From Diaphorobacter ruginosibacter (GTDB lineage: Bacteria; Pseudomonadota; Gammaproteobacteria; Burkholderiales; Burkholderiaceae_C): a stretch of 64,000 nt of DNA. This document shows, in pieces, positions 922 to 52,191 of the stretch (positions are counted from its first letter, which is position 1; each line of letters starts with the position of its first letter). The translations under genes were made by a program, and so were the position numbers. The stretch is taken from assembly GCF_040396215.1 (NCBI RefSeq), contig NZ_JBEBOW010000002.1, positions 9,437 through 73,436 on the forward strand. Reading direction: 5' to 3'. A model generated the notes under the pieces. The model searched no databases. It was not told the DNA's origin and was given only the letters and a program-made list of their open reading frames with translations.

Positions 922-987
922 ATCCTGTCCTCGCGCATCGCGGCCGATGCGGCCGGGTCATGGGTCCAATTGTTGTCCGGGTGCGTT

Positions 988-1749: not shown

Positions 1750-1758
1750 CTCTCGGCT

Positions 1759-3641: not shown

Positions 3642-3644
3642 CGT

Positions 3645-4766
3645 TCAGAACCCCACATTCTTGAAAGCGACCGCGAACAGCGCATCCACGATGATGACCA
3701 TGGTGATGGCGCTGACCACCGATGCGGTCGTTCCCTCGCCCAGGCTCTGCGTGTTCGGCTCGACGCTCAGGCCCCAGTGGCAGGCGATCAGCGCAATGAA
3801 TACGCCGAACACCGCCGACTTGCTCATCGCCAGCCACAGGTTGGAAGGATTCACCGCCGCCGGCAGCGCTTCGACGAAATAAGCGGGCGAAATGTTCATC
3901 GCCACATCCGCGGCCAGCATCCCGCCCGCCAGGGCGGCCAGCGTGGTCCACAGCGCCACCAGCGGCATGGCTATGGCCAGCGCCAGCGCGCGCGGCATCA
4001 CGAGGCGAAAGCCATGCGAAATGCCCATCACGCGCAGCGCATCCAGCTCTTCCGTCACACGCATCACGCCGATCTGCGCGGTGATCGCCGAGCCCGAGCG
4101 GCCGGCCACCAGAATGGCGCCCAGCATCGGTCCCAGCTCGCGGATCAACGAAATTCCAAGAATGTTCACGATGAACGCTTCCGCGCCAAACTGCCGCAAT
4201 TGAAGCGACATCAGGTAAGCCAGCACCACGCCGATCAAGAAGCCCACCAGCGCCGTGATGGGCAGCGCCGTCGCCCCCGTGCGGTACAGGTGCGCAGAAA
4301 TATCGCGCCAGGGCCCCTTGCGCGGCTGCGCGGCCAGACGCAGCAGATCGAACATCAACTGCCCGATCAGCTCCACCAGATGCCTGAAATGGCCCGCGGC
4401 CCTGAACAGGCCCACGCCAAGCTGGTCCAGCCGCGCGAAGAGCCACGATGGCCCCTTGGATGACGTCTGCTCCCGGCTGAACTTGGCCAACTGCCCGAAG
4501 ATGTCCTGCTGCGCGGGCGTGGCCTGCAAGCCCTGCGGCATGCGCCCGCCCCAATGGTTCCACAGGATCTGCGCGCCCACATGGTCGAACCGCTCCATGT
4601 CCCGCAGATCCCATGAACCGGAGTTGCCCGCGCGCCTGAGCTCGTCCTGCAGCCGCCGCCACGCATGCCGGTCCGCGAAGGCGGCGGCCACCCACTCTCC
4701 CCGCGCCCTGACGCTGGAGGCAGTGCCTGGTTCGGCCTGTATCGACGGCGGATTCGTTGTCTGCAT
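3645..4766 (-). CDS. MlaE-family ABC permease with N-terminal STAS-like extension
   Basis: The ORF track gives 3645-5066. I trimmed it to the ATG at 4766 (MQTTNPPSIQ...) because the upstream 100 codons run into the divergent promoter region. The C-terminal half is polytopic membrane, typical of MlaE. Confidence 0.82.
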   Translation of the reverse strand: MQTTNPPSIQAEPGTASSVRARGEWVAAAFADRHAWRRLQDELRRAGNSGSWDLRDMERFDHVGAQILWNHWGGRMPQGLQATPAQQDIFGQLAKFSREQTSSKGPSWLFARLDQLGVGLFRAAGHFRHLVELIGQLMFDLLRLAAQPRKGPWRDISAHLYRTGATALPITALVGFLIGVVLAYLMSLQLRQFGAEAFIVNILGISLIRELGPMLGAILVAGRSGSAITAQIGVMRVTEELDALRVMGISHGFRLVMPRALALAIAMPLVALWTTLAALAGGMLAADVAMNISPAYFVEALPAAVNPSNLWLAMSKSAVFGVFIALIACHWGLSVEPNTQSLGEGTTASVVSAITMVIIVDALFAVAFKNVGF

Positions 4767-5182
4767 GTCAAAGAAGAATATGCGGCGCGGTGCCTGGCGG
4801 CGCGCGTTCGGAAAGGGTGATTCTGCACGCCTGGCGACTGTCCGGCACGACACGGGGATGTTCAGGAAAACGCGCGCATCCGCGCGGCACCGTGGCGAAC
4901 GCCGGGAACACGTCACCGGAAGGCGTCCATCATTCCATAAAAAAAGGCGCCCGCGCGCCTTCAGGTCTTTTTGTGAACAACCTCTTGCAAACGCGGCACG
5001 GCCGCGGGCGCTGCCGACGCTTTGAGAAAACATCACAAATCCCGCGCTGGCCGCCGGTCGCATCAAACCCGCGCCACAAATTCAATAGCAGATCAGCACT
5101 TCCCCTCTCGACACCCGGAAGCCTTCTTGCACAATGGCTGAACGAGACACACAGGCCTGTTCAGGCAAGGCATCCGGCATCC

Positions 5183-6853
5183 ATGAGCGACAACACGGAA
5201 TTCGACTACATCATCATCGGCGGCGGCACGGCCGGCGCGCTGCTCTCCAACCGGCTCAGCGCCGACAAACAGAAAAGCGTGCTGCTCATCGAGGCGGGAC
5301 GCCGCGACGACTACCACTGGATCCACATCCCGGTGGGCTATCTGTACTGCATCGGCAACCCGCGCACCGACTGGCTCTACAACACCGAACCCGATCCAGG
5401 GCTCAATGGCCGCACGCTGCGCTATCCGCGCGGCAAGACCCTGGGCGGCTGCTCCAGCATCAACGGCATGATCTACATGCGCGGCCAGGCGCGCGACTAT
5501 GAACACTGGGCGCAGGTCACGGGTGACGACGAATGGCGATGGAGCAGCGTGCTCGACGCCTTTCGCCGCCACGAGGACCACTGGCGCCTGGACGACCCGG
5601 CCAAGGCCAGCGAGGCGTTCAAGCAATTGCACGGCAGCAAGAGCACCGGCGGCTCGGGCGAGTGGCGCGTGGAAAAGCAGCGCCTGCGCTGGGACATCCT
5701 CGATGCCTTCGCGCGGGCGGCGGCCGAGGCCGGCATCCCCGCCACCGACGACTTCAACCGCGGCACGAACGAAGGCGTGGGCTATTTCGAGGTGAATCAG
5801 AAAAGCGGCTGGCGCTGGAATACCGCCAAGGCGTTCCTGCGCCCCACGTGCTACGGACGCCCGAACTTCGAGATGTGGACCAACGCGCAGGCAGCCAGGC
5901 TCATCGTCGAGCCCCAGGCCGACGGTTCGCGGCGCTGCACCGGCGTGCAGGTATGGACCGGCAGGGAAATGATCACCGTGAAGGCGCACCAGGAAGTCAT
6001 CCTGAGCGCGGGCGCGGTGAACTCGCCGCAACTGCTGCAGCTCTCCGGCATCGGCCCGGCGGCGCTGCTGCAAAAGCACGGCATCGATGTGGTGCGCGAC
6101 CTGCCCGGCGTGGGCGCCAACCTGCAGGACCATCTGCAGATCCGCGCCGTCTACAAGGTCGATGATGTGCCTACGCTCAACGTGATGGCCGGCAGCCTCG
6201 TGGGCAAGGCGAAGATCGGGCTCGAATACGCGCTCAGGCGCAGCGGGCCGATGAGCATGGCGCCCTCGCAGTTGGGCGCTTTCACGCGCAGCAGCCCGGA
6301 GCTGGCGCACCCGAACATCCAATACCATGTGCAGCCGCTGTCGCTCGACGCCTTCGGTGAGCCGCTGCACAGCTTCCCGGCCTTCACCGCCAGCGTCTGC
6401 AACCTGAACCCGACCAGCCGGGGCTCGGTGACGATCAGGCATGCCGACTTCAAGGCCGCCCCCGCGATCGCGCCGAACTACCTCTCCACCGACGAAGACC
6501 GCAAGGTGGCCGCCGACAGCCTGCGCGTGACGCGCCGCATCGTCGCGCAACCGGCGCTGGCGAAGTATTCGCCGCAGGAATGGAAGCCGGGCCCGCAGTA
6601 CCAGAGCGACGAGGATCTGGCGCGGCTCGCGGGCGACATCGCCACCACTATCTTCCATCCGGTCGGCACGACGCGCATGGGCCGCGACGACGACCCCATG
6701 GCCGTGCTCGACTCGCACCTGCGGGTGCGCGGCATCGCAGGATTGCGCGTGGTGGACGCGGGCGCGATGCCCACCATCACCAGCGGCAACACCAACTCGC
6801 CCACGCTGATGATCGCGGAGATGGCGGCGAAGTGGATTCGCGGCGGGCAGTGA
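5183..6853 (+). CDS. GMC-family FAD oxidoreductase (choline/alcohol dehydrogenase-like)
   Basis: MSDNTEFDYIIIGGGTAGALLSNRLS ADP-binding fold at the trimmed start (ATG 5183). The GMC signature region is present and the protein is about 556 aa. Confidence 0.9.
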   Translation: MSDNTEFDYIIIGGGTAGALLSNRLSADKQKSVLLIEAGRRDDYHWIHIPVGYLYCIGNPRTDWLYNTEPDPGLNGRTLRYPRGKTLGGCSSINGMIYMRGQARDYEHWAQVTGDDEWRWSSVLDAFRRHEDHWRLDDPAKASEAFKQLHGSKSTGGSGEWRVEKQRLRWDILDAFARAAAEAGIPATDDFNRGTNEGVGYFEVNQKSGWRWNTAKAFLRPTCYGRPNFEMWTNAQAARLIVEPQADGSRRCTGVQVWTGREMITVKAHQEVILSAGAVNSPQLLQLSGIGPAALLQKHGIDVVRDLPGVGANLQDHLQIRAVYKVDDVPTLNVMAGSLVGKAKIGLEYALRRSGPMSMAPSQLGAFTRSSPELAHPNIQYHVQPLSLDAFGEPLHSFPAFTASVCNLNPTSRGSVTIRHADFKAAPAIAPNYLSTDEDRKVAADSLRVTRRIVAQPALAKYSPQEWKPGPQYQSDEDLARLAGDIATTIFHPVGTTRMGRDDDPMAVLDSHLRVRGIAGLRVVDAGAMPTITSGNTNSPTLMIAEMAAKWIRGGQ

Positions 6854-39983: not shown

Positions 39984-40005
39984 TTCTCCACCAAAATACA
40001 GAAAA

Positions 40006-41043
40006 TCAAATCATCGCCACGCAAAATGCATCACCCGCATCGGATGGCAATTGCTTTTCAAACCAGTTTTCCGCGCCATCGAAGGTATAGAAAACCTGGC
40101 CGCCACGCGTCACGGAAATGACGCCATCACCATTCTTGATATGAACATTGATGCCCATGATGGTGCTTTCCGGATTCACCTGAGAATCGGCGCGCCGCCA
40201 ATTTCGTCCAAGATCGTCGCTGGTATAGACAGCACCGGCGTTGCTGCGCGAGGAAATACTGAAACACGCATAGAGTTTCTCTGGCTTTCCTGCCACCACG
40301 CGCAGATCGCGGCAATAACTGAAAGGAGCGAAATTGCGGACTTTCAAATCCTCGAAGGTCTTGCCAAGGTCGTTGCTTTCGAATACGCCCATGCGGCACA
40401 GGTAATACACGGCATCGGGCCTGGCCGTCGATGTGGTCACCGCATGCGCGTCGAACATCCCCTCGGCCTCGTCATCCGTCTCGATCTTGCTCTTGAGCAC
40501 GGGATCCCTGGCAAGCTCGACCAGCGCCCCGGTACGGGCATTCCAGGTCTTTCCGCCGTCCTCGCTCAGCATGAAACCATTGATTTCGGCAATGCCGTAG
40601 AGCACCTTGTCGTTGGTCGGATGAAATGCCAGGCGCATCACGCGCGAGGCGCCGAAACGGATATTGAAGCGCTCCGGATGATTCACCTGGCATGCCGTCC
40701 AGGTTTCACCGCCATCCAGGCTCTCGAACACGCCAATCGGAGAGGTGCCCGCAAACAGATGATCCGGGTTGCGCGGGTCAAATTCGATGGACCAGAACTG
40801 AATACCCTCCGGCGCATGCACGTTGCGCCATCCCAGGCCCTTGTCGGTGGATTTGAAAATACCTTTTCTCGTGGCGGCGAAAATAATATTCTCATTGACC
40901 GGATGCTGGACAACCGCCTGCACTGCGGCATTATCAGGAATATCACCCACCTTGACCCACTCCTTGCCATGCTCCATTCTGTAGAGCGAGCCAATGGCAT
41001 TTTCCCGGGTCACCGCCGTTCCTGCAAAAAGCACCTTGTCCAT
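40006..41043 (-). CDS. cytoplasmic BNR/Asp-box beta-propeller protein of unknown function
   Basis: Six Asp-box-like repeats: STDKGLGW, SLDGGETW, SEDGGKTW, SNDLGKTF, SDDLGRNW, TFDGAENW. No signal peptide. GC is locally low. Trimmed to MDKVLFAG (ATG 41043). Confidence 0.78.
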   Translation of the reverse strand: MDKVLFAGTAVTRENAIGSLYRMEHGKEWVKVGDIPDNAAVQAVVQHPVNENIIFAATRKGIFKSTDKGLGWRNVHAPEGIQFWSIEFDPRNPDHLFAGTSPIGVFESLDGGETWTACQVNHPERFNIRFGASRVMRLAFHPTNDKVLYGIAEINGFMLSEDGGKTWNARTGALVELARDPVLKSKIETDDEAEGMFDAHAVTTSTARPDAVYYLCRMGVFESNDLGKTFEDLKVRNFAPFSYCRDLRVVAGKPEKLYACFSISSRSNAGAVYTSDDLGRNWRRADSQVNPESTIMGINVHIKNGDGVISVTRGGQVFYTFDGAENWFEKQLPSDAGDAFCVAMI

Positions 41044-41239
41044 GCATATCTCCTGAATTTGATGAATCAATTCTAGGAATTCACGATTTCAGCGGCCAAT
41101 CAATTTGAACGGCTATCCATAAATTTTTGCTGAATGAATTCGCGCCACCGCCAGGGCATGGCGCGGGACGAAAAAAAGGCCCCCACGCTTCCCCGCTGCG
41201 CGTGGTCCGCTGCCCCCGAGGGGGTGATTTTTGGGCGAC

Positions 41240-41263
41240 AAAAAAAGGGACCGCCCGGGTCCC
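41240..41263 (-). terminator. rho-independent terminator after the maleate-isomerase-like gene
   Basis: The reverse strand reads GGGACC-CGGGC-GGTCCC followed by TTTTTTT. A second, weaker hairpin plus T run follows at about 41171-41205. Confidence 0.65.
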
Positions 41264-41290
41264 TCAAGAAGCACTCGCATTTCCTCTCTG

Positions 41291-42037
41291 TCAATGTGTG
41301 AACAGCCGCCCCGCATCCGGCAGGTTGCCGCTCCAGCCCACCTGCCGCAGCGCATCCCAGAGCACGGCCTGATTGCTCGTCACCACCGGCACGCCGAGCT
41401 TGTCCTCGAGCTCCCGCACCGCCTCGAACGCACGCACGTTCGCGCATGACAGCAGGATCGCGTCCATGCCCGGCACCGCATGCTGCAGCGCGTGCGTGAC
41501 GAGCTGCGCGGGCGGCATCAGCGCGGCCTGGCGGGCATCGACGAAATTCAGTCCCACGGATTGCAGAATCTCCAGGCCGTCGGCCTCCAGCGAGGTCCGC
41601 TCGTCATTGGAGAACTTGTCCGCGAACGGGCAGACATGCACGATCTTTGCCGCGCCCACGGCCTTGAGCGCGCGCTTGATGGCCACCATGGTGTTGGACG
41701 ACTTCACGCCCAATTCCTTTTCCATGCGCTCGGCAAGCGACCAGTCGCCCCGCGCGCCGTTCGAGACACTCGCGCCCGTGCAGTTGAAGGTGATCACGTC
41801 CGCGCCAAGGTCCTTGAGGTAGCCGGACTCATCGATGGCCTCCAGGTGCGCGCGCAGCAGACTGTCGCGCGTGACCACTCCGCCCTCCTTGCGCAGGCGG
41901 ATGCGGTGTACGTGGTAGGCCACGTCCTCGGGGCAGAACTTGCGGAAATCGTCCTCGCCGATGGTGTTGAGCGACGGCACGACCATGCCGATGCGCTGCT
42001 TTTTCTTGTCTTCACTCGTTTGCATGTTCAAAGTCAC
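41291..42037 (-). CDS. Asp/Glu/hydantoin racemase superfamily protein (maleate cis-trans isomerase / arylmalonate decarboxylase-like)
   Basis: Two catalytic-Cys contexts, FNCTGAS and LSCANVR. Its start overlaps the Bug gene stop (ATGA). Confidence 0.82.
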   Translation of the reverse strand: MTLNMQTSEDKKKQRIGMVVPSLNTIGEDDFRKFCPEDVAYHVHRIRLRKEGGVVTRDSLLRAHLEAIDESGYLKDLGADVITFNCTGASVSNGARGDWSLAERMEKELGVKSSNTMVAIKRALKAVGAAKIVHVCPFADKFSNDERTSLEADGLEILQSVGLNFVDARQAALMPPAQLVTHALQHAVPGMDAILLSCANVRAFEAVRELEDKLGVPVVTSNQAVLWDALRQVGWSGNLPDAGRLFTH

Positions 42038-43029
42038 TTCTGCTTGGCCGCGCCGGTTTCCTCGATGATCTTGCCGTAGCGCTGGATGTCGCTGGCGATC
42101 AGCTTGCGGAATTCCTCGGAAGAACCGTACAGGCGCTCGTTTTTCTGCACCTCGAAGAATTTCCCTGATTCGGGATCATCCAGAATCGCCCTGATCTCGC
42201 GGTTCAGCCGCTCGACGATGGGCGCGGGCGTGTGCGCGGGCGCCAGGATGCCCATCCAGTTGACCACCTCGAAGCCCGGCAGATGCGCGGCCTCCGCGAT
42301 CGTGGGGATGCCCGGCGCCATGGCGCTCGGGCTGGCCGTGGAAATCGCCAGCATCTTGAGGCGGCCGGTCTTGGCGAAGGTATCGGCCGATGCGTAGCCG
42401 CTCGAGACCATGTCCACCTCGCCCGCCACCGCCGCCTGCACCGAGGCCGGCGTGCCCGCGTAGGGAATGAAGCGTATGGGCAGATTCGCCTCCTTCACGA
42501 ACATCGCCATGCCCAGGTACATGGTCGTCGATCCGCTGATCGCGCCGTAAGTCAGCTTGTCGGGATGGGCCTTGGCATAGGCCATCATCTCGGGCAAGGT
42601 GTTGAACGGCGCATCGGCGCGCGCCGCGATACCGTTGGGAGCGGTCGCCACGGGCGCCACCGGGGCAAAGTCCTTGAGCGCATCAAACGGCAGGTTGGGG
42701 TAGAAACCCGGATTGATGGCATGCGCGACGCTGGTGAACAGCAGCGTCTGCCCATCGGGCCTGGCGCGCGCCACGACCGCCGTGCCGATCGCCGCGCCCG
42801 CGCCGGGCTTGTTCTCCACGACCACCGGCTGGCCGAGCCGCCCTTCCAGCTTCTTGCTGATGTAGCGGGCCATCAGGTCCACGCCGCCGCCGGGGGCGAA
42901 CGGCACGATCAGGTTCACCGCGCGGGTGGGATAGCCATCCGCCTCGGCGCTCATGGCGTTTGCGCCAGACAACACCCCGCCCACGGCCATGACGCCCGCG
43001 AGCGCCGCCTTCTTGTTCCAATTCCACAT
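42034..43029 (-). CDS. Bug-family (TctC-like) substrate-binding protein
   Basis: Signal peptide MWNWNKKAALAGVMAVGGVLSGANAMS and family blocks (VVENKPGAGA, IPYAGTPAS). Trimmed to ATG 43029. Confidence 0.9.
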   Translation of the reverse strand: MWNWNKKAALAGVMAVGGVLSGANAMSAEADGYPTRAVNLIVPFAPGGGVDLMARYISKKLEGRLGQPVVVENKPGAGAAIGTAVVARARPDGQTLLFTSVAHAINPGFYPNLPFDALKDFAPVAPVATAPNGIAARADAPFNTLPEMMAYAKAHPDKLTYGAISGSTTMYLGMAMFVKEANLPIRFIPYAGTPASVQAAVAGEVDMVSSGYASADTFAKTGRLKMLAISTASPSAMAPGIPTIAEAAHLPGFEVVNWMGILAPAHTPAPIVERLNREIRAILDDPESGKFFEVQKNERLYGSSEEFRKLIASDIQRYGKIIEETGAAKQK

Positions 43030-43084
43030 GCTTTGTCTCCACTGGGCGACGCCGGCTTGCAATACGGCGCCGCCATGCACTGCC

Positions 43085-44218
43085 TCAGAAATAGTGCTTC
43101 ATGCCCACCGTGATCAAACGGGTGTCGTTCTTGTAGATCGCCGGATTGCCGTCGCTGCCTTTAAGATCCGTCACGAAATCGGCGTACAGCGACGTGCGCT
43201 TGGACAGCGCATACTGCGTGCCGACATTCACCACGAACGCATCGGTGCCGTCCACGATGCCGTAGGCCCCGGTGCCGTTGGTGCTGTGCTGGCCGAACTT
43301 CAGGTACGGCTCGAAGGCGCCCATGCGATAGGCGCTGGTCAGCGCCCAGGACTTGGCGCGGGTCCATTTTGCAGATGGGCCCGAGGCGGTTTCATATTGG
43401 TAGATGGCGCCCACGCGCAGAGCGCCGAATTTATACGTTCCACCCAGGCTGGTAAGCGCGCCCTTGGCATTCCACAGCGGATCCGGGCGAACCTCGGCAT
43501 AACCAATGCCGATGAACAGATTCTGATCCTGATATGTCAGCGTCGCATCGACGTGATCTCCAGATCCATTGGCCGGATTTTTCCCAAGCTCACCCATGGA
43601 ATACATGACTTTCGCCTGGAAACCGGAAATACGTGAGCTCACATATTGAATCGCATTATTCTTGCGATTCGATTCAGCGCTTCCCGCCGTGCCATTTCCA
43701 CCCGAGAAAACAGAAATACCTTCATTATTATTACCACCCCGCCCGGGACTTCCGGATATCCAGCGCCCCACGGTCGCCAGATCTCCGTTGTACATGATGC
43801 CCGTGCCGTTGAAGCCGCTGCCGCACCAGTGCAGATCCACCTGGCACAGCAGATTGGCGGACCCCGTCAGATAGCGGCCGAAACGCACCTCGCCCCATTG
43901 CGCGCCGGACAGGCCCACCCAGGAATTCCGGTTGAAGAATCCGAAGCGGCTGGTCTCGCCCGTGTCCACTGCGGGGGCCATCTCCAGCATGAAATTGGCC
44001 TTCAGGCCGCCGCCCAGGTCTTCCTTGCCGGCAATAATCAACCGCGATGTTTCAAACGCGCCATTCTGCAGGCGATTGACGGTATTGCCATTGGCGCTCT
44101 TGTAATTCTGAATACCCGCATCCAGCACACCCGAAATCTTCAATTCAGACTGCGCCTGTGCTGAAATCCCCACCGCTCCCAATAGCCCCAAAGCCACCCA
44201 TCGATATTGCAATCGCAT
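43085..44218 (-). CDS. outer-membrane general porin (Gram-negative porin family)
   Basis: Signal peptide ending AQA. The sequence has alternating beta-strand character and ends in the aromatic residues ...GMKHYF. Confidence 0.9.
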   Translation of the reverse strand: MRLQYRWVALGLLGAVGISAQAQSELKISGVLDAGIQNYKSANGNTVNRLQNGAFETSRLIIAGKEDLGGGLKANFMLEMAPAVDTGETSRFGFFNRNSWVGLSGAQWGEVRFGRYLTGSANLLCQVDLHWCGSGFNGTGIMYNGDLATVGRWISGSPGRGGNNNEGISVFSGGNGTAGSAESNRKNNAIQYVSSRISGFQAKVMYSMGELGKNPANGSGDHVDATLTYQDQNLFIGIGYAEVRPDPLWNAKGALTSLGGTYKFGALRVGAIYQYETASGPSAKWTRAKSWALTSAYRMGAFEPYLKFGQHSTNGTGAYGIVDGTDAFVVNVGTQYALSKRTSLYADFVTDLKGSDGNPAIYKNDTRLITVGMKHYF

Positions 44219-44516
44219 ATTTTGTCCCCGTAAGAATTATTCAACCCGCATGCGCCAGAATTCAAAACTCATGCGCTGCGGTAATTCTCATCAATTGGAG
44301 GCATGAAGTCCCATACAAAATGGGATGCATCTATAAATTTGTACTGAACAGCGGTTTTCTCAGGGTTTTCCAGCAAATCGGAAGCGGACGGAAAACAAGG
44401 GGCCGGATCTCCATCCATGGAGCCGTTTCGCGCCAGCGGGCGGGATGGCCCGGCGAGCATGCCGCATGTGCGGCGCCGGATCGCCAGGCCCGCAGGCACC
44501 CCGCCATAGGGGGGGT

Positions 44517-44550
44517 GCAGGAACAGGGTATGCGCAGGAACAGGGTGTGC
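44517..44550. repeat. tandem 17-bp direct repeat GCAGGAACAGGGTRTGC x2
   Basis: Read directly. The copies at 44517-44533 and 44534-44550 differ at one position. They lie in the intergenic region between the giant gene stop and the porin promoter region. Confidence 0.6.
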
Positions 44551-44607
44551 GCCGGAAGAATCCGCGCCGCCCGCAAGCCTCAATGGCTTGCGGACAGACC
44601 CGGTCGT

Positions 44608-47600
44608 TCAATCCGTGTGAAAGCGCCGCGGGCCGGATCGCTGGCGCCCCATCGCCAGACCCGACAGCAGCAGGCTGAGCAGCCCCAAGGCCAGCGCGCC
44701 CAAGGAAGGCACGGGCGTGGCGCCGGTGGGCCCGGGTGCCGCGCTGTTGATGGCAACACCACCGGGATCGGTGATGAACGAGTTCGCCAACAGATCACTG
44801 TCGCCCAAACCACCATCGGTCACCGTCAGCGTGACGGTGTTGCCGGAGATGGTGACACCGGGCAGCCGGTACCAGTGATCAGTGGGGTCGTCACTTGTCT
44901 TGCCGTATTTCCAATACTGCGCACCCGCGGGGAAACTCATGGGGTAGGTGAACTGAATGGTTGCCGCGGACCCTTTGAGTCCGTTGATGGCCGTGAATCC
45001 GAACAGACCTGCGGGGAACGTCAAATTGGCTGGAGGAACAAGGTCGGTGGACACCTGAAAACCCGTCACATCCCAGCCCGGTACGTCACCTGGCGGGCCA
45101 AAGATCCAGCCATCGCCCGAAATCTGCGCGGTGGCCAGGCCCTGAGGCAGGGTGCCGGTCACCGTGCTGGAAGTCCCCGCGGGCAGTGTCACCAGAACGC
45201 TGGCGTCCATTTCGGCGGCGGCATGGCTCTCGTCTCCCGGCTGTGAGGCCGTGACCGTGCACGTGCCTGCCGTGTAGAACGCCAGCGTCGTTCCCGTGAC
45301 CTCGCACACGCGGGTCGTCTTGGAGGTAAACGTGGTCACGGTCAGCCCCGGGATGTCGGACGTGGCACTGAGCGCCACATCCGCCGCGCGCAGCACCAGC
45401 GGGCCTGCTGGGAGACTGAACGTGAGGGTCTGCGAAGCCTTGCCGACGCTGATGGTCACGCTGTTGGAACTGGTCGCCGCATCGTAGCCGCCCGACGCGG
45501 CATTGCTCGCATTGATTTCGCACGAGCCGATGGCCTTGCCCGTGACCAGCCCCGACTTGGGGTCCAGGGTGCAGGCATCGCCGCCAGCCACCAGGGCGTA
45601 GGTGTAGTCGATCGTGCCGCTGCCGCCGGCGGCCGTCACGTTGGTGCTTCCATTCAGGGCGATGCTGGTGCTGGCGGCGCTGATGGTGATTTGCGCCTGG
45701 GCCTGATTGACGATGTTGATGGTGGCGGTGCTGGCGGGGGAATCCAGATAGTAGGCGTCTCCAGGCATGACCGCCTGCACGACGCAGGCGCCAGCGGAAA
45801 CCGCCGAGATCGTGTTGCCAAAGAGCGTGCAGACCCCAGGCGCGCCGCTGACGATGGAGTACACCACCGCGTTGTTGGTCGAGCCGCCTGTAAAACCAAG
45901 GAGCGCTGTCTGTCCGGCTTGCACAGTGGAGCTTGGCGCCGTGATCGCGAACGCCTGTTGCTCTGCTTTGTTCACGGTGATCGTCACGTCGCCCGATCCG
46001 GCTTCATAGTTGGCGTCGGCGGCTTGCGTTGCCGTCACCACGCAACTGCCCACCCCCGATGCCGACAGCACGTTGCCCAGAACCGAGCAGGGGCCGCTGG
46101 ACACCGCATACGAAATCGCACCGGTGCTGGCGTTCGGTGTCACACTCAGTTGCGACGTCTGGCCATAGGCGATGGTGGCGGGCGTTGCCTGCACGGCAAG
46201 TATTTCCCCGCTGGCCTTGGTGACGGTGATGACGGTGGACGCGATGGCGGGAAAGTAGTTGTCGTCACCGGCTTCGCTGGCGTTGATCGTGCAGGCTCCG
46301 GCGGTGAGCGCCTCGACTTGCGTGGCGCCGTTGATGCGGCAGACGGCGCTGGAAGAGGGGTCGACCGTCGCGGTTTCCGCGCCGCCGGACAGCGCGCCCG
46401 TGAAGCTCAATGCCGAGAATCCGCCAACCGGCATGCTCGAAGGTGCGGCGGTGACGGCGAACAAGGGTTGTTGCGCCTTGGCCGTCGTCAGTTCAATGGT
46501 CCAGGATGCGGGGTTGTAGTTGGTGTTGCCCGGGTTGGTCGCGATGACCTTGCACGCGCCCTGGGCCTTGACAGCGGTGACCTGGTTGCCGGACACCGAA
46601 CAGTAGGTGGAGGCATTCGCGTCGGCGGGGTCGAGCTCGTAGACCACCTGTACGCCGGTCACGCCGCCCGACGGAGTCAGCGTGACGCTGGCCTGGAAGG
46701 GCACGGACGTGCTGCTTGCCGAGACCGTGAAGTCCGTCTGATCTGCTTTGAGATTGGTCAGCGAGAAATCGGTCGTGGCGGCTCCGCTCGTGGCCACCAC
46801 GAGATAGGACCCGGCATACCCATTGGCCTTCACGCCCGTGAGCGTGGCATAACCGTCCACATCGGCCGTGGCGGTGTGCGTGCCGGGCATGTTGGTGGAA
46901 GGCGCGTTGGCGACGGCGGGCGCGGTGAAGTTCACGATCACGCGGGGAACCGGCTGGCCCAGCGAGTCTTTGACCAGCACCTTCAGATCCGCGTAGTCCT
47001 GCAAAATGATGGCGCTCTGCGTTCCGCCGCTGTCCTGAATGTCGAACGTGACGGGCGGGCCATATGAATCGATCCGCCGGAGCTCGCCTCGCTGCACGAT
47101 GCCCGGTGATGCGCTCGACGCACCGCCGGCGTACAGCACGGGACGGCCGAAGGGCCGGGTGGTGGCGTTGATATCCACAGCCTCGGCGGCCAATGCGTTG
47201 AAGCTGTCCATGCCGGACGCGCCGATCAGCCCCCAGAATTCGGGGGTGTTGGACGCAGCCGTGAAGCGCGCGAGAAATCCGTCCTGTCCTCCCAGGGAGA
47301 CATTGGAGAGGCCGCCCGCGCTCCCGGTTCCCGTCAGGTTCGTCAATGCGCCCGTCGAGTTGCCGATCACGTAGTAGCCATCGCCCACCGCCGCGACCGC
47401 GGTGGCGCTGTCGTATCCGCTGCCGCCCAGATACCGCGCGGACAACACGGACGCGCCACTGGCGGCAAGGCGCACCACGAAGCCATCCATGCCGCCGGCG
47501 AACGTGTTGCCGGCCACCGCATTGATGGGGAATCCCGAGGCGCTGGTCTCGCCGACCACCAGCACGCTGCCGTCCGCAAGAAGCCGGGCGCCCAACGCGC

Positions 47601-49197
47601 GGTCGCTGGTCACCTTGGCGGCGTCGTACGAGCCCGTGAGGAGGGTGAAATATTCATAGGCATCGCCCGTCGGATTGACGCGCGCGACGAACCCATCGGC
47701 CATATCTCCGTTGGAGTCGCCATCCGCGGGCCGGGCGTTGGGGACCTGGTTCAGGCCTGGCACGCCCGTGGGCATGCCGGCGGATGTCGAGTCGGTCTCT
47801 CCAGCCACGATGACGGCATTGGTTCCTGGATCGACTGAAATCGCGTGGCCGATATTGACGGCGCCGTCGCCATTCAATGCCCGAAAGTATTCGAATGCCT
47901 GCCCGTTTGCCGCCACGCGCGCGACAAACGCGTTCTTGCCGGTGCTGCTCCACGGGGTCGCGGAAGAGCCCAAGGCGCTCGGGGTGCAGACGCCCGCGGC
48001 GCAAGTCGGCGTGGCGAACCCGGTGATGTAGAGGCGGCCCGCGCCATCGACCGCCACGGCGTTCGCCTGATCGTCACCGGCGCCGCCAAACAGGCTCGAC
48101 CACACCACGGTGTTGTCTGCGGGGTCGATCTTGGCGAAGAAGCCGTCTTTGTCCGTGCTCGTCTTGCTGCCGTGCAGGTTGGCGTCGGTGCGTGTTCCCT
48201 GCGTGGGGAAATTGGTGGATTCCGTCACTCCGCCGATATAGACGGAGCCGTCCGGGCCGAGGGCCAGGCCACGACAGCTATCGTTGCCATTGCCGCCAAG
48301 AGTGAACCGGCTTGAGGACCCGTCGCCGTTGAATCGCGCAACAAACGCCTTCTGAAGCCATCCATCCTGCGTCGTGCCGCACACCCAGGTGGTCTTGCCG
48401 GCGACATCCCGCGCGACGGCGTTCACCACATCGTTCACGTTGTCGCCCACCAGGCCCGCCGGAGCCGCCCATGCGGGGTCGACCACCAGCGGCAAGGAGG
48501 TGTCGTAGTCGCCCAGCGTGAACGTCACGCGCCAGGTGCCGGCATCCACCGGCTGCAGCACATAGCCCGCCGCAACCCGCACCCGTTTGTTGCCAACGGT
48601 CTGGTAGGCAACAGGAGCGCTATCGTGCAGGGTCGTGCCGTTCACACGCCACTCCAGCGCCCCCTCCGGCGTCATGCGCGCGGATTCGGCGCCCGCGATG
48701 CGCAGCGCCACCTGCCGGGCATCGGCGCCCGCCGCCAACTCGAACTGGTACTTCAAACCGGTGTCCGTGCCCTTGAAGACCGCATCCACCCCTGGCCAGA
48801 CACCACGGTAGGCCAGCTCGGCGTAACCCGCCCGGTTGCGCACCCAGTCACTCTGCGGGCCCACAAAGGCGCTATACGACGATGTCGTGATCTTCTGGCC
48901 CAGCGGCGCGGAAGAGGCGCCGCCATCAAAGGCGTAACTCAGCCCCGCATGCACGCCAATGCTCTTGAGCCGGACCGGCTGGCTCGCAGGCCCCTGCTCC
49001 ATGCTCACGCCACGAGCGTCAAAGCGAATGGAGCCGCCCGCCGTATTGACGACGTAAAGCGGCTCGGTCTGAGACGGCGAAAGATCAATGAAGCGGCCGC
49101 TGCGCTCGGCGAGGTCACGTTGAACCAGTGGCTCGCTTTGCGCATGGGCCATTGACGCGCTCAGAAGCATTGCAGCGGCGAGTAGGGAGTGATGCAT
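44608..49197 (-). CDS. giant secreted surface protein: N-terminal domain, beta-propeller-like repeats, Big/Ig-like repeats, choice-of-anchor-like domain, IPTL-CTERM-like sorting signal
   Basis: Signal peptide MHHSLLAAAMLLSASMAHA. Repeated D-G-F-[VL]-A-[RK] strands are present. There are six ~88-aa Ig-like repeats with two Cys each. The C-terminus is ...DGGLGDSDLLANSFITDPGG...TPVPSLGALALGLLSLLLSGLAMGRQRS. An alternative TTG start at 49239 abuts the upstream stop. Confidence 0.9.
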   Translation of the reverse strand: MHHSLLAAAMLLSASMAHAQSEPLVQRDLAERSGRFIDLSPSQTEPLYVVNTAGGSIRFDARGVSMEQGPASQPVRLKSIGVHAGLSYAFDGGASSAPLGQKITTSSYSAFVGPQSDWVRNRAGYAELAYRGVWPGVDAVFKGTDTGLKYQFELAAGADARQVALRIAGAESARMTPEGALEWRVNGTTLHDSAPVAYQTVGNKRVRVAAGYVLQPVDAGTWRVTFTLGDYDTSLPLVVDPAWAAPAGLVGDNVNDVVNAVARDVAGKTTWVCGTTQDGWLQKAFVARFNGDGSSSRFTLGGNGNDSCRGLALGPDGSVYIGGVTESTNFPTQGTRTDANLHGSKTSTDKDGFFAKIDPADNTVVWSSLFGGAGDDQANAVAVDGAGRLYITGFATPTCAAGVCTPSALGSSATPWSSTGKNAFVARVAANGQAFEYFRALNGDGAVNIGHAISVDPGTNAVIVAGETDSTSAGMPTGVPGLNQVPNARPADGDSNGDMADGFVARVNPTGDAYEYFTLLTGSYDAAKVTSDRALGARLLADGSVLVVGETSASGFPINAVAGNTFAGGMDGFVVRLAASGASVLSARYLGGSGYDSATAVAAVGDGYYVIGNSTGALTNLTGTGSAGGLSNVSLGGQDGFLARFTAASNTPEFWGLIGASGMDSFNALAAEAVDINATTRPFGRPVLYAGGASSASPGIVQRGELRRIDSYGPPVTFDIQDSGGTQSAIILQDYADLKVLVKDSLGQPVPRVIVNFTAPAVANAPSTNMPGTHTATADVDGYATLTGVKANGYAGSYLVVATSGAATTDFSLTNLKADQTDFTVSASSTSVPFQASVTLTPSGGVTGVQVVYELDPADANASTYCSVSGNQVTAVKAQGACKVIATNPGNTNYNPASWTIELTTAKAQQPLFAVTAAPSSMPVGGFSALSFTGALSGGAETATVDPSSSAVCRINGATQVEALTAGACTINASEAGDDNYFPAIASTVITVTKASGEILAVQATPATIAYGQTSQLSVTPNASTGAISYAVSSGPCSVLGNVLSASGVGSCVVTATQAADANYEAGSGDVTITVNKAEQQAFAITAPSSTVQAGQTALLGFTGGSTNNAVVYSIVSGAPGVCTLFGNTISAVSAGACVVQAVMPGDAYYLDSPASTATINIVNQAQAQITISAASTSIALNGSTNVTAAGGSGTIDYTYALVAGGDACTLDPKSGLVTGKAIGSCEINASNAASGGYDAATSSNSVTISVGKASQTLTFSLPAGPLVLRAADVALSATSDIPGLTVTTFTSKTTRVCEVTGTTLAFYTAGTCTVTASQPGDESHAAAEMDASVLVTLPAGTSSTVTGTLPQGLATAQISGDGWIFGPPGDVPGWDVTGFQVSTDLVPPANLTFPAGLFGFTAINGLKGSAATIQFTYPMSFPAGAQYWKYGKTSDDPTDHWYRLPGVTISGNTVTLTVTDGGLGDSDLLANSFITDPGGVAINSAAPGPTGATPVPSLGALALGLLSLLLSGLAMGRQRSGPRRFHTD
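45184..46749 (-). repeat. six tandem coding repeats (~88 aa each) for Cys-pair Ig-like domains inside the giant gene
   Basis: Each unit has the form ...[FL]x[VI]xAxxxxxxxxxxxxLxxxGGxxxxxxxYxxxxxxxxCxxxGxxxxAxxxGxCxxxAxxxGxxxYxxAxxxxxxIxVxKA. The units begin at ORF-track residues (numbered from 49239) 831, 922, 1009, 1092, 1180 and 1269. Confidence 0.7.
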
Positions 49198-49239
49198 GGC
49201 GCGTCGAAGAAGTGGTGGGCGGTGGCGAGATGGCGGCAA

Positions 49240-49767
49240 TCAGGACCGCGGAGGGAAGACACCCTGCAGCGCGATGCAGAAATACGCCGTGAGATAGGGC
49301 GGCAGATTGTTGTGCGGCATTCCTCCTCCCACAGGGGCGACCTGCTGCGGCGACATCCTGGTCAGACTGCTTGCGGGTGTCGTGGCATAGGCACGGGTAG
49401 GGGCGGACCCCAGGGCCGATGTGCCGGAGGCCGACGTCACCGCGGCGTCGCCGGCCAGACCGGTCTTGACCATATGGGTATGGCTCGGAATCTCGGATTC
49501 CAGCAGCGTGACCGTATCGGAGCCACCCGTCTCGCCCAGGTCATGCAGCGAGAGCCCGGCCCCCTGGCCGGGATGCATGGGCATCCGCCCCTGCAGATCA
49601 GGCAGCGCGAAATTGGACTTTCCATCACCGCCGTACGTGGTTCCCAACAGGGAAAACAAGGCGGTGTTCTGTGAAAGGGGCAGCAACTGGCCATCGCACC
49701 AGGCCCAGCCGCGGGGTGCGAAGTTGAACGGGAAAATGCGGATTTCCGCTACAAAGGGATCTGCCAT
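49240..49767 (-). CDS. phage Tail Collar domain protein, paralog C (MdpB-like)
   Basis: MADPFVAEIRIFPFNFAPRGWAWCDGQLLPLSQNTALFSLLGTTYGGDGKSNFALPDLQGRMPMH... and C-terminal PHNNLPPYLTAYFCIALQGVFPPR. No signal peptide. Confidence 0.88.
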   Translation of the reverse strand: MADPFVAEIRIFPFNFAPRGWAWCDGQLLPLSQNTALFSLLGTTYGGDGKSNFALPDLQGRMPMHPGQGAGLSLHDLGETGGSDTVTLLESEIPSHTHMVKTGLAGDAAVTSASGTSALGSAPTRAYATTPASSLTRMSPQQVAPVGGGMPHNNLPPYLTAYFCIALQGVFPPRS

Positions 49768-49771
49768 GATC

Positions 49772-50275
49772 TCAAGTCGGTGAGGGAAAGATGCCTTGCA
49801 GGGCGATGGTGAAACTCAGCGTCAGGAAGGGCGGCATATTCACATGCGCCTGAGAAGCGCCCACGTTCGTGACGCTGGCGGGCGTCAGGCTGACATCTGC
49901 TCCAGGCGCATAGTGTCCGAAGGCCGCTGCAGGAATATGGGTGCTGCTGGCACTGTTGGAGCTGCGGTTGCCTGGCGCCTCGGAGGCATTCACCAGATGG
50001 GTGTGGGCCGGCAGCTCGCCGATGCTGAGCGTATGCGCCTGTTCGCCCGCGCGTTCTCCAAGCGCATGCCCGTTGCCGACATGCATCGGCATGCGCCCTC
50101 GAAAGTCCGGTAGCGCGAAGTTGACACGCCCGTCCCCACCGAATGTCGTTCCAAGCAGCGAGAAAAGTGCCTGGTTTTGATTGATGGGTAACAGTTGCCC
50201 GTTGCACAACGCCCAGCCCCGCGGAGGGAAGGCGAAGGACATGACGCGGATTTCTGAGAGGAATGGTTCAGCCAT
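49772..50275 (-). CDS. phage Tail Collar domain protein, paralog B (MdpB-like)
   Basis: MAEPFLSEIRVMSFAFPPRGWALCNGQLLPINQNQALFSLLGTTFGGDGRVNFALPDFRGRMPMH... and C-terminal HVNMPPFLTLSFTIALQGIFP. Confidence 0.88.
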   Translation of the reverse strand: MAEPFLSEIRVMSFAFPPRGWALCNGQLLPINQNQALFSLLGTTFGGDGRVNFALPDFRGRMPMHVGNGHALGERAGEQAHTLSIGELPAHTHLVNASEAPGNRSSNSASSTHIPAAAFGHYAPGADVSLTPASVTNVGASQAHVNMPPFLTLSFTIALQGIFPSPT

Positions 50276-50781
50276 CAGTTTTCATTCGGATAAATGCCGT
50301 ACAGCGAGATGATGAAATTCACGCAGAGATACGGCGGGAAGTTGTCATGTGGCTGGGAGCCTCCGGTGGGATCGAGGGCGCTCGGACCCAGAGCCCCCTC
50401 GGGCGCTTGCGTATTGGCAAACACCTTGTGATCGCGATGGCCGGCGAATACGCCATCCTTGGGCGACGCCTGTGAGCCCGTTCCCGAGCTTGCCAGGAGC
50501 GCATGGGAATGGGAAGGAATCTGATTGACGGAGAGCGTCACGGCTTCCACGCCGCCGGTTTCCGCCAGGATGAAACCACTTCCTTGATGCAGGGGGATGC
50601 GTCCACGCAGATCGGGCAACGCGAAAGTCTCCTGGCCATCGCCGCCGTAGGTGGTGCCGATCAGCTGGAAGAGTGTTTCCAACTCGGAAATCGCCAGCAA
50701 TTGCCCTTCACAGAACATCCAGCCCGCGGGCGCAAAATTGCCCGCGAATATTCGAATTTCACCGACATAGGGCTGTGCCAT
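50275..50781 (-). CDS. phage Tail Collar domain protein, paralog A (MdpB-like)
   Basis: MAQPYVGEIRIFAGNFAPAGWMFCEGQLLAISELETLFQLIGTTYGGDGQETFALPDLRGRIPLH... and C-terminal PHDNFPPYLCVNFIISLYGIYP. Trimmed to ATG 50781 by alignment with the paralogs. Confidence 0.88.
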   Translation of the reverse strand: MAQPYVGEIRIFAGNFAPAGWMFCEGQLLAISELETLFQLIGTTYGGDGQETFALPDLRGRIPLHQGSGFILAETGGVEAVTLSVNQIPSHSHALLASSGTGSQASPKDGVFAGHRDHKVFANTQAPEGALGPSALDPTGGSQPHDNFPPYLCVNFIISLYGIYPNEN

Positions 50782-50851
50782 AACGAAAGGACGACGCCGA
50801 TGACGCCGCATTTTGTTTTAATTATTTAAATTCTAGAATAGATCAATCAAA

Positions 50852-51280
50852 ATGTTAAAAAATCTTGCGGCAAATCAGATGACGAAATCCAATCGAAGAA
50901 ATTTTCTGAAGCTGGCTGGCTCCATGCCCGCAACCGCGGTCGTGCCCGGCGCCATGCTGACCGCGGTCGCCAGCCAGGCGAGCGAACCGCCCGCCAGCGC
51001 CGCGCTGACCCGCCAGAAGTTCTTGGCGCTTCTCGATCAAACCTTCCATCTTTCCCAGGATGGCACGGCACGCACGGCACGGCTCACGTCCGTGGAAGAC
51101 TTGCCCAATTGCACCAACCACGCGCAGTCGTTTCGCGCCGTGTTCGAAGTGCTGGGCCCCCAGGGCGCACGGCAGGCGCTGTGGCAGGTGGAACACCCCA
51201 GCCTGGGACTGCACGCCATCTTCATGACCCCGAATGACGCGCAAGGCCGCGCGCTGGAGGCGATCTTCAATCGCGGTTGA
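50852..51280 (+). CDS. small Tat-signal protein of unknown function (paralog of 51832-52191)
   Basis: Twin-arginine motif SNRRNFLKLAGS followed by AVASQA. The alternative start ATG 50879 gives MTKSNRRNFL. It is divergent from the collar operon. Confidence 0.68.
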   Translation: MLKNLAANQMTKSNRRNFLKLAGSMPATAVVPGAMLTAVASQASEPPASAALTRQKFLALLDQTFHLSQDGTARTARLTSVEDLPNCTNHAQSFRAVFEVLGPQGARQALWQVEHPSLGLHAIFMTPNDAQGRALEAIFNRG

Positions 51281-51851
51281 GGGGTGCTGGCGCGGCTGCC
51301 TGTCCCGTGGTTTGCGCCGTGGTTTGCGCGGTATTGACCGGCTGCGGCTCCCGGAACATTTTCATGTACGCCCCCTGGATTTCGCTGTCCACGAACCCCA
51401 AGCGCTCGTAGAGGCGTTTGGCCGGGTTGTCTGGCTCCACGAACAACCGCGCTCTGCGCCCCGTGGCATCGGCCTGCTGCGTCACCCAGCGGACCAGCTG
51501 CGTGCCATGCCCCTGTCCTCGTCGCCGCACTGACAGGGACACTTCCATCAGGGCCAGCAGGTCCGGTCCGTCACTCAGGTACAGCCGTCCAATCCGGACA
51601 CCCTCCAGTTCGATCACGAAGTAACGGGCATAAGGGTAATGGGCGCGATAGTGCCGATCCTGCAGGGTGAATTGCGCGTCGCAGAACGCATCCATCTCCT
51701 GCTCCGTCCAGCCGGAGGCAGCCAGCTCCGGCCTGCGCACCTCCCGATAGACCGAGCGCAAGAACGGATAGTCATCAGGCCGCACGGGACGCAGGACCAG
51801 CGCCCCCACGCGCAGATCCGCCGGGGCGCCCTCAACCGCCATGGCTGTCAT
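51267..51851 (-). CDS. GNAT-family N-acetyltransferase
   Basis: LRPVRPDDYPFL at the N-terminus, the acetyl-CoA loop RRRGQGHGTQLV, and NPAKRLYERLGF. Confidence 0.85.
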   Translation of the reverse strand: MTAMAVEGAPADLRVGALVLRPVRPDDYPFLRSVYREVRRPELAASGWTEQEMDAFCDAQFTLQDRHYRAHYPYARYFVIELEGVRIGRLYLSDGPDLLALMEVSLSVRRRGQGHGTQLVRWVTQQADATGRRARLFVEPDNPAKRLYERLGFVDSEIQGAYMKMFREPQPVNTAQTTAQTTGQAAAPAPLNRD

Positions 51852-52191
51852 GGCTCACGCAGGCCTCGTACTCGAGCCCTTCGCTGGTGCGCGCCACGGG
51901 TGCGATGAACACCGCGAAATCTCCCAACTCCGCATGGCGCATGCGGTACGTCCGCTGCGGCAACTGCGGCGACGCGGGGCCCTGAAAAAATACGCTGAAC
52001 TGCTGGTGCTGCTGATGGGCCGGGCGCTCCCGCAGCGCTCCCAGCCGAAGCGGCACCGACTGGGTCCGCCCCTGCTCATCCCCCCAGTAGCACTGCAACA
52101 CCTGTCCCTGCAATGCGGCCGCGATGTCGTGGGTCAGCACGCGCGACCAAAGCGCATCGTCGAGCAAATGGGTCTCAGTGACTGGTGGCAT
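51832..52191 (-). CDS. small cytoplasmic protein of unknown function (paralog of 50852-51280)
   Basis: Trimmed to ATG 52191 (MPPVTETHLL...). Its C-terminal half aligns to the Tat-signal protein (see findings). It overlaps the GNAT start by 20 nt. Confidence 0.58.
   Translation of the reverse strand: MPPVTETHLLDDALWSRVLTHDIAAALQGQVLQCYWGDEQGRTQSVPLRLGALRERPAHQQHQQFSVFFQGPASPQLPQRTYRMRHAELGDFAVFIAPVARTSEGLEYEACVSHDSHGG

Follow-up and report, generated by a model that had tools for sequence, protein, structure and literature searches.

A widespread cellular cassette of three tail-collar paralogs and a giant surface protein, present in a derived form in Diaphorobacter ruginosibacter

Introduction

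In the virophage DSLV2, three consecutive proteins of the phage Tail Collar family (Pfam PF07484) co-purify as an A:B:C heterotrimer of ~55 kDa, and this 1:1:1 heterotrimer forms fibres of ~16 nm and binds Synechococcus cells (PMC12724248). Here, we analyzed three tandem collar genes that lie directly upstream of a gene for a giant surface protein in the bacterium Diaphorobacter ruginosibacter. They are located on contig NZ_JBEBOW010000002.1 of RefSeq assembly GCF_040396215.1, within a stretch of 64,000 nucleotides (positions 9,437 to 73,436 of the forward strand) that is called the window throughout and in whose numbering its coordinates are given. An earlier reading of this stretch, made from its sequence alone and referred to below as the original prediction, had proposed a domesticated collar module beside a giant surface protein. 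We found that the trio belongs to an ancient and widespread cassette of cellular genes.

Background on the parts of such a cassette comes from phages as well as from cells. The HxH motifs of T4 gp12 and gp37 bind Zn or Fe on the trimer axis, and hitch-hiker export by the twin-arginine translocation (TAT) pathway is known for the small and large subunits of hydrogenases. For small cellular 'phage tail collar' proteins (COG4675, MdpB, RhiB, and MrpB), no assigned function was found in the searchable literature, in which the work on Microcystis mrpAB dates from 2001. COG4675 proteins have been detected in soil metaproteomes (PMC5579227), and the collar paralogs of Solibacter are under positive selection (PMC3174227). 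In Acaryochloris marina, AM1_3684 and AM1_3686-3690 comprise three 'phage tail collar' genes, an acetyltransferase gene, and two genes for hypothetical proteins, and they are co-induced about 6-16-fold, among the strongest responses in low far-red light (PMC11633204).

Results

The collar trio is the core of a conserved cellular cassette

The three collar genes of the window lie in tandem on the minus strand, at 50275-50781 (paralog 1, 168 aa), 49772-50275 (paralog 2, 167 aa), and 49240-49767 (paralog 3, 175 aa), and they are followed on the same strand by the giant gene (44608-49197, ~1,529 aa). Scanning with Pfam Collar PF07484, whose gathering threshold is 24 bits, yielded E-values of 8e-28, 2e-27, and 7e-28, respectively, and scores of 95.1-96.8 bits. 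The three proteins share 42-48% pairwise identity and 58 invariant columns, a similarity far above chance that identifies them as paralogs.

One genome per species was scanned for counterparts of this locus, which gave at least 532 confirmed matching stretches. The detailed survey was then made on the best 80 loci, in which open reading frames (ORFs) were called and searched with hidden Markov models (HMMs) built from the cassette proteins; partner counts out of 52 refer to the species loci with at least 3.5 kb of flank. These best 80 loci span seven phyla, with representatives in the Verrucomicrobiota, Acidobacteriota, Chloroflexota, Actinomycetota, Bacteroidota, and Gemmatimonadota and among the Alpha-, Beta-, and Gammaproteobacteria. 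Collar paralog 2 has more than 8,000 homologue clusters, and its identity is ~70-75% in Comamonas, Gaiellaceae, and Holophagales.

Exactly three collars were present in 71 of the 76 complete clusters. A GNAT gene accompanied them in 50 of 52 loci and a DUF6916 gene in 47 of 52. In 47 of 52, too, an ORF of 1,000 aa or more adjoined the cluster on the same strand. This giant is upstream in 31 cases and downstream in 19, and it occurs on both sides in at most three loci, a rarity by which chance adjacency is controlled for internally. Of the five loci lacking a same-strand giant, three have one on the opposite strand. When neighboring ORFs of 85 loci were clustered without bias, the only common partners were GNAT (83), the giant family (74), and DUF6916 (73); the remaining recurrent clusters look like shadow ORFs. 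The window conforms to this pattern, with a cassette-type GNAT and DUF6916 within 5 kb of its collars. Some loci were also noticed to hold two or three tandem collar triplets, such as L033 (3401-12368, with a canonical giant between the triplets) and L050.

The same set, i.e., three Collar genes, a GNAT gene, one or two DUF6916 genes, and a giant repeat protein, appeared in Pfam-annotated neighborhoods of Diaphorobacter, Holophagales, two Verrucomicrobia-type contigs, and another metagenome lineage. In 11 Pfam-annotated neighborhoods of unrelated lineages, the flanks were cellular and differed between lineages, and no phage genes were present. In the reverse test, all three DUF6916 proteins that had been picked regardless of context were found to sit in a cassette. 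As for the window, Pfam scans of 30 further genes returned housekeeping families only, including MreB, MreD, PBP2, GatA/B, AmtB, MlaE, TctC, and regulators, and no phage family, in agreement with the earlier statement that the 64 kb hold no phage context.

Taken together, the non-phage context and the co-occurrence across genomes support the domesticated module that had been proposed. The concern that such triplets might mostly reside in prophages or tailocins was not borne out in the 11 cellular neighborhoods or in the unbiased list of non-phage partners, and the association of triplet and giant was recovered across genomes. We conclude with high confidence that this is a cassette conserved in cells rather than the remnant of a prophage.

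Viral relatives are distant and keep other neighbors

A search of 2.9 million viral contigs yielded a best collar match of 48% identity among the matches listed, versus 62-74% in cellular genomes of the seven phyla. Among the best 80 viral loci, DUF6916 was detected in one and the giant core, described below, in none. Distant small-collar triplets in virus-labeled contigs adjoin long collagen-triple-helix proteins, which form trimeric fibres. In L128 (206-11285), triplets of 227-236 aa come after a collagen-repeat protein of 2,348 aa that has a Collar domain at its own end. The collar triplets of L094 are preceded by three collagen/CBM96 paralogs (882-5345), which suggest heterotrimeric collagen-like fibres. 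Two triplets are present in L094 (5693-8909) and three in L096 (1-5456). These triplets beside collagen proteins constitute an independent link of collar trios with long trimeric fibres.

Three collar orthogroups combine a constant scaffold with a hypervariable segment

Single-linkage clustering of 263 collar ORFs at 60-65% identity produced exactly three groups, with 88, 84, and 82 members, and the window contributes one collar to each: paralog 1 to w1 (82 members, 72% mean identity across phyla), paralog 2 to w2, and paralog 3 to w3. Mean identity is 72-74% within an orthogroup, even across phyla, versus 47-50% between orthogroups, and no other cassette gene reaches the conservation of the collar scaffold (mean identity 46% for GNAT, 38% for DUF6916, and 36% for the giant core). 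This scaffold, of 123-128 residues, is 87-89% identical across phyla. The remaining variable segment of ~45 residues is 27-29% identical and sits between the HxH motif, invariant in all three orthogroups, and a GGSQxH block. Of 176 alignment columns, 94 are conserved at 80% or more in every group, and 36 of those hold a different fixed residue in each paralog. Retention at 1:1:1, paralog-specific columns, and a constant scaffold with a hypervariable segment make up the pattern that would be expected of an obligate hetero-oligomer with a variable binding surface.

In the window, the collar paralogs display the same features. The HxH motif appears as P[SA]H[ST]H, which was absent from the earlier description, and paralog 3 carries PGLSL, a conserved insertion specific to the w3 group. 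All three proteins start with Met-Ala, and no hydrophobic N-terminal segment was found in any of them. The longest ORF form of paralog 1 starts at 50811; the MAxP start of its orthologues (here MAQPY) is at 50781. Paralogs 1 and 2 overlap by 1 nt (TGATG, at 50275), paralogs 2 and 3 are separated by a 4-nt gap (49768-49771), and the stop of paralog 3 abuts the giant ORF, which reaches TTG 49239 and has its ATG at 49197.

A profile of the three paralogs was searched against solved structures and matched the phage fibre tips 8kec (E = 1e-8) and 9nxk (E = 1e-4), as well as the T4 gp12 structures 1ocy, 1pdi, and 5iv5. The alignments to 8kec and 9nxk extend through the HxH (PSHxH), the latter as far as the C-terminal PP[YF]L block; gp12 is aligned over the collar alone (query positions 15-74). 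Paralog 3 gave a weak Gp10_C match of 25.6 bits, under the 27-bit cutoff, and the PHROGs matches of the collars were tail proteins without exception.

The original prediction thus held for most of what it had said of the genes themselves. The three tandem ORFs were re-derived from the sequence at the same positions and lengths; their clear paralogy stood at the identities given above; the Pfam scan identified the N-terminal block as Tail Collar at 95-97 bits in each; and the shared N- and C-terminal blocks, the divergent middle rich in Gly, Ser, Ala, and Thr, and the operon-like spacing were as described. It had also ascribed a signal peptide to the giant and none to the small proteins, and a hydrophobic N terminus was indeed present only on the giant, where a signal peptide is plausible. 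On the extent of the locus it was right for the trio and the giant; the GNAT and two DUF6916 genes had been overlooked.

The window carries a derived variant with an exchanged giant

Giants in 74 of the 85 loci hold a core of ~920 aa, composed of a Big_9/cadherin domain and beta-helix-like repeats. Giants encoded downstream of the collars have this core at the N terminus, and those encoded upstream have it at the C terminus. Further domains vary by neighborhood (He_PIG, Calx-beta, Big_9, Cadherin_5, or CLIPPER), and the giants have signal peptides and sorting signals appropriate to the lineage, namely a C-terminal domain of the type IX secretion system (T9SS) in Bacteroidota, IPTL-CTERM in Comamonadaceae, and RTX repeats at one locus. 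Canonical giants with a C-terminal core were seen to end in R(L/M)RQRQxTTxRLPGYGG...GGG(F/Y)xGxxxCP (e.g., L036 3038-9943, L056 1516-5808, and L021 2315-9979), and no sorting signal was recognizable after that motif.

The collar order is w2-w1-w3 in 72 of 85 loci, with w2 first; in the window, w2 is second. The order w1-w2-w3 was found only in the window, Diaphorobacter, Delftia, and one metagenome-assembled genome (MAG) of the Sphingobacteriales, and exactly these four loci lack the canonical core. The three Comamonadaceae loci encode a DUF7948/SBBP/IPTL-CTERM giant instead, and the Sphingobacteriales MAG encodes an HYR_4C/Ig_7/PKD_5 giant with a T9SS C-terminal domain. The window therefore represents a derived, Comamonadaceae-type variant with a swapped gene order and another giant in place of the canonical beta-helix one. 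All four swapped-order loci still adjoin giants, so even an exchange of partner has left the trio beside a giant secreted protein.

The giant of the window contains a signal peptide, DUF7948, an SBBP beta-propeller repeat, Ig-like repeats, choice-of-anchor U, and IPTL-CTERM (Pfam and NCBIfam). Its plausible signal peptide reads MHHSLLAAAMLLSASMAHA and is followed by QSEP. Pfam E-values are 5e-35 for DUF7948 and 1e-28 for choice-of-anchor U; the last 60 residues match IPTL-CTERM TIGR04174 at 22.2 bits versus a cutoff of 20.5, and the Delftia orthologue matches Pfam IPTL-CTERM. BLASTP retrieved only the giants of Diaphorobacter (75%) and Delftia (40%), in addition to similarity over the Ig repeats. 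A PDB sequence search with this giant and one canonical giant returned no matches. Homology of the window giant to the canonical giants was rejected, as the BLASTP relatives, Ig-repeat similarity aside, are confined to Comamonadaceae and the core HMM is silent.

GNAT and DUF6916 genes complete the cassette

Divergent from the collars, a long DUF6916 protein with a twin-arginine signal is encoded at 50852-51280 on the plus strand (142 aa; PF21880, E = 3e-15). It is followed on the minus strand by the gene for the GNAT N-acetyltransferase (51267-51851, 194 aa; Pfam Acetyltransf_1/7/10 in identical metagenome loci) and that for a short DUF6916 protein (51832-52191, 119 aa, without a signal peptide; called as PF21880 in identical loci). 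Four metagenome contigs carry the whole block in identical form. The stop of the short DUF6916 gene overlaps the GNAT start by 20 nt (51832-51851), which suggests translational coupling, and the 3' ends of the GNAT and long DUF6916 genes overlap convergently by 14 nt (51267-51280).

The twin-arginine motif of the long DUF6916 protein is SNRRNFLK (SNRRNFLKLAGS). It scored 16.9 bits with TIGR01409 (cutoff, 16.7) and 17.1 bits with Pfam TAT_signal, under the cutoff of 22.7. With this motif of the form S/T-R-R-x-F-L-K and a hydrophobic region, the protein is a putative TAT substrate. The GNAT gave weak NCBIfam matches to rimI and AAC(6'), and against PDB sequences it matched spermidine acetyltransferase only; as this match is weak (E = 4e-4), no substrate is named.

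A single-sequence search with the window DUF6916 yielded 3 matches, and the family survey was made by profile. The family comprises 10,410 representatives at 50% identity and falls into two classes, a cytoplasmic form of ~100 aa, which is the commoner type among cassettes, and a long form of ~150 aa. The twin-arginine motif was present in 56 of 76 long-form representatives and in none of 68 short forms. DUF6916 is also fused to a methyltransferase dependent on S-adenosylmethionine in proteins of 288-290 aa (L011 11556-12422 and L081 11559-12431). After this fusion, L011 has an extra ORF of ~270 aa with no Pfam match, to which ORFs of ~265 aa in seven loci are related (e.g., L070 11960-12757), and a further protein, P0244 (237 aa), carries two tandem DUF6916 domains behind a twin-arginine-like leader.

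An AlphaFold2 (AF2) model of the short DUF6916 protein reached a predicted local distance difference test score (pLDDT) of 82.5 and consists of two short helices and a six-stranded beta structure. Foldseek searches with this model against PDB and BFVD gave nothing below E = 1e-3, and DUF6916 had no match in PHROGs. The best fold matches, half-barrels of the norovirus protease and a few phage head-tail or tail proteins, had TM-scores of ~0.45 and were treated as uninformative.

Composition and signals around the window cassette

The G+C content at third codon positions (GC3) is 0.70-0.81 in the cassette genes versus about 0.85-0.91 in most flanking genes, and the regional G+C content falls to 0.59-0.62 at 40000-46000 and 50000-52000. 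These low values hint that the cassette may be of horizontal origin.

Between collar paralog 1 and the long DUF6916 gene lies an A+T-rich divergent intergenic region (50782-50858). A consensus scan found a sigma-70-like site upstream of paralog 1 (TTAACA-17-TAGAAT, minus strand, 50858-50830), which is weak evidence for a promoter, with 3 sites found versus 1.6 expected. A G+C-rich hairpin, GCGGCGTCATCGGCGTCGT, is present at 50791-50809 (minus strand), between this site and the start codon of paralog 1, and falls inside the alternative upstream frame that starts at 50811. No terminator-like site was found between the collar genes in the consensus scan. Near the junction of paralog 3 and the giant gene, terminator-like matches occur at 49286-49303 (opposite strand) and at 49107-49091 (minus strand, inside the giant ORF); such matches are within chance (3 found versus 6.2 expected).

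A few genes away from the cassette, a BNR/Sortilin-Vps10 protein is encoded at 40006-41070 (minus strand), and a longer one (~1,100 aa) is encoded near the Holophagales cassettes (L006 16554-19838 and L007 16520-19831). This proximity may be coincidence or a loose association.

Discussion

How the cassette may work

The cassette is best explained as a whole by a heterotrimeric collar tip that works with a giant surface protein, a reading to which we give about an even chance. Its parts deserve different degrees of confidence. Judging from their sequence patterns, the three collars would probably form one heterotrimeric fibre tip, itself probably metal-stabilized, with a variable binding surface. 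Indirect support for the heterotrimer is provided by the three orthogroups at 1:1:1, the 36 paralog-specific columns, and the DSLV2 complex. A joint extracellular action of tip and giant, in recognition or adhesion, is advanced tentatively. By analogy, the twin-arginine DUF6916 protein might export a pre-folded trimer by hitch-hiking and the GNAT might modify a cassette component, a pair of roles that we regard as speculative and rather unlikely.

In the mechanism that we have in mind, the three collars would be non-interchangeable subunits of a single A:B:C tip that folds in the cytoplasm, probably stabilized by metal through the HxH motif. The near-invariant scaffold would serve assembly and docking, and the hypervariable segment of ~45 residues would be the ligand-binding surface. 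The tip and the neighboring giant would act together as a recognition or adhesion device, in the way that phage long fibres carry small distal adhesins. The GNAT and the cytoplasmic DUF6916 would be modification, assembly, or adaptor factors; since all three collars start with Met-Ala, their N terminus is one candidate target of the GNAT. In cassettes with a twin-arginine DUF6916, that of the window included, the folded trimer may cross the inner membrane as a TAT hitch-hiker on this protein.

A broader proposition would make the cassette a previously unrecognized recognition apparatus common to at least seven bacterial phyla. It would combine a phage-derived A:B:C tip of antibody-like constant/variable design, its metal assembly in the cytoplasm and modification by a dedicated GNAT, a transfer of the tip to DUF6916 adaptors, folded export by TAT hitch-hiking where a twin-arginine copy exists, and docking on exchangeable giant secreted fibre or adhesin proteins, where the tip would set what the cell binds. 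That all five parts hold together appears doubtful.

Several observations weigh against a tip that works with the giant outside the cell. At the loci inspected, the collars are without exception devoid of signal peptides, and to act outside the cell they would need a separate, as yet hypothetical export route. A TAT-type DUF6916 is present in 23 of 74 cassettes (the window among them), leaving two thirds with no TAT copy. The fusion of DUF6916 to a methyltransferase points to a cytoplasmic role. Near-invariance of the collar scaffold across phyla is atypical for receptor-binding proteins, and the proposed mechanism does not account for it. The HMM of the canonical ~920-aa giant core has no match in the window, so that the collars would find no obvious docking partner here if they dock on that core. 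The AF2 monomer of collar paralog 2, built on a 30-sequence alignment, reached a pLDDT of 41.6, which we attribute to the shallow alignment and to a fold that possibly depends on trimer partners. Both the heterotrimer and the contact of collars with the giant are inferred.

Alternative explanations

The three collars might be independent homotrimeric lectins, each with one specificity, that supply three tips still deployed with the giant. The collar fibres of T4, gp12 and gp37, are homotrimers, and gp12 was matched by our profile; paralog-specific fixed columns would fit three specialized homotrimers as well. Such independence is at odds with the strict retention of the three at 1:1:1 and with a gene order fixed in 72 of 85 loci, as well as with the domain layout and similar length that all three collars have in common, and DSLV2, the only tested trio of small tandem collars, is a heterotrimer. 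We therefore hold separate homotrimers to be distinctly unlikely.

Alternatively, the cassette could encode a cytoplasmic complex for assembly, modification, or quality control whose target would be the pre-protein of the giant or some other conserved molecule inside the cell. The absence of signal peptides from the collars, the GNAT, and the short DUF6916 agrees with this location, as does the methyltransferase-DUF6916 fusion, and extreme conservation of the scaffold would suit a universally conserved intracellular partner. Such a complex is nevertheless hard to reconcile with the hypervariable segment, the homology to receptor-binding fibre tips, and a DUF6916 paralog whose TAT signal predicts export, and a partner that is swapped for unrelated giants is hard to square with a dedicated chaperone. 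This explanation is considered improbable.

In a role in antagonism or against phages, the tip would be released, either to direct a bacteriocin-like attack or to mask receptors as a decoy, and the GNAT would provide immunity or modification. Such a role is still harder to sustain. The phage-derived tip with its hypervariable segment would suit it, GNATs act as immunity enzymes in some toxin systems, and positive selection acts on Solibacter collars (PMC3174227). PADLOC-DB 2.0, however, gave no match for any of the seven cassette proteins at E <= 0.01, the cassette contains no recognizable toxin, lysis, or release gene, and it is stable at varied chromosomal sites that are not defence islands. 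We regard this role as very unlikely.

Finally, a decayed prophage or tailocin remnant with a large neighbor by chance, for which the phage origin of the Collar domain, the exclusively tail-protein PHROGs matches, and the lowered GC3 could be cited, is effectively refuted by the window's lack of phage genes (30 further genes scanned), the same non-phage partners recurring in seven phyla, the near absence of DUF6916 and of the giant core from the best 80 viral contigs, the rarity of double-sided giants, and the strong purifying selection to which three intact collars in 71 of 76 clusters and 87-89% scaffold identity attest.

Implications

One large subfamily of cellular collars is, then, not phage debris and forms the core of a fixed multi-gene cassette, which occurs in hundreds of matching genome stretches from bacteria of soil, water, and sludge. 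The routine annotation of these genes as 'phage tail protein' may mislead prophage detection. Culturable bacteria, namely Delftia, Comamonas, Mesorhizobium, Flavobacterium, Dyadobacter, and Chiayiivirga, make it possible to test the proposed heterotrimer, its export by TAT, what the GNAT acts on, and whether tip and giant are partners. If the tip does set binding specificity, it would offer a compact and naturally modular binding scaffold.

Comparison with known systems

The original prediction did not recognize the locus as a described system, and we agree, since no published description was found and PADLOC returned no match. The literature on COG4675, PF07484, and 'tail collar' that was searched, from which subscription-only papers are excluded, contains no description of the cassette, and within the same limits DUF6916, DUF7948, PF21880, and PF25778 are not mentioned. 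In our assessment, the cassette belongs to no kind of system described so far; the possibly heterotrimeric collar fibre tip at its center is a known type of molecule.

The closest relative by design is the virophage DSLV2 of the Aquatic Virophage 1 lineage, which likewise has three consecutive, co-oriented small PF07484 genes (PMC12724248) and combines a conserved collar with a variable head patch (DSLV2 residues 120-145). The DSLV2 genes, however, encode virion components beside capsid genes, whereas the window cassette is chromosomal and cellular and includes GNAT, DUF6916, and a giant; the heterotrimer has been shown experimentally for DSLV2 and is inferred here. The tips of T4 gp12 and gp37 and the gp10/gp11 baseplate trimers share the succession of Collar, HxH, and head, with the weak Gp10_C match of paralog 3 as a further likeness. 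In T4, these are homotrimers whose tip is the C-terminal end of long fibre proteins assembled on a baseplate; the three paralogous collars of the window, in contrast, are the tip only (~170 aa), and their vicinity is free of tail and baseplate genes.

Among cellular proteins, RhiB of Rhizobium leguminosarum (rhiABC) and MrpB of Microcystis (mrpAB) are small Collar-domain proteins that share COG4675 and the JGI name 'microcystin-dependent protein' with the homologues found here, and they are under the control of quorum sensing or light. Compared by description only, they differ in that a single collar gene is paired with RhiA or MrpA, with no trio, GNAT, DUF6916, or giant. No RhiA or MrpA annotation occurs among the genes neighboring the collars, where annotations were compared and no sequence search for RhiA or MrpA was made. 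The Acaryochloris marina set resembles the cassette by annotation only, in its three collars, acetyltransferase, and hypothetical proteins.

Tailocins and extracellular contractile injection systems are similar in that cells keep phage tail components for their own use. They retain sheath, tube, baseplate, and spike, whereas the cassette retains the fibre tip only and joins it to non-phage partners. Lastly, the hydrogenase subunits provide the model of a twin-arginine small subunit encoded beside signal-less proteins, and in the cassette, too, the signal-less proteins probably fold, and possibly bind metal, in the cytoplasm; this likeness is an analogy only, and unlike the hydrogenases, most cassettes have no TAT copy.

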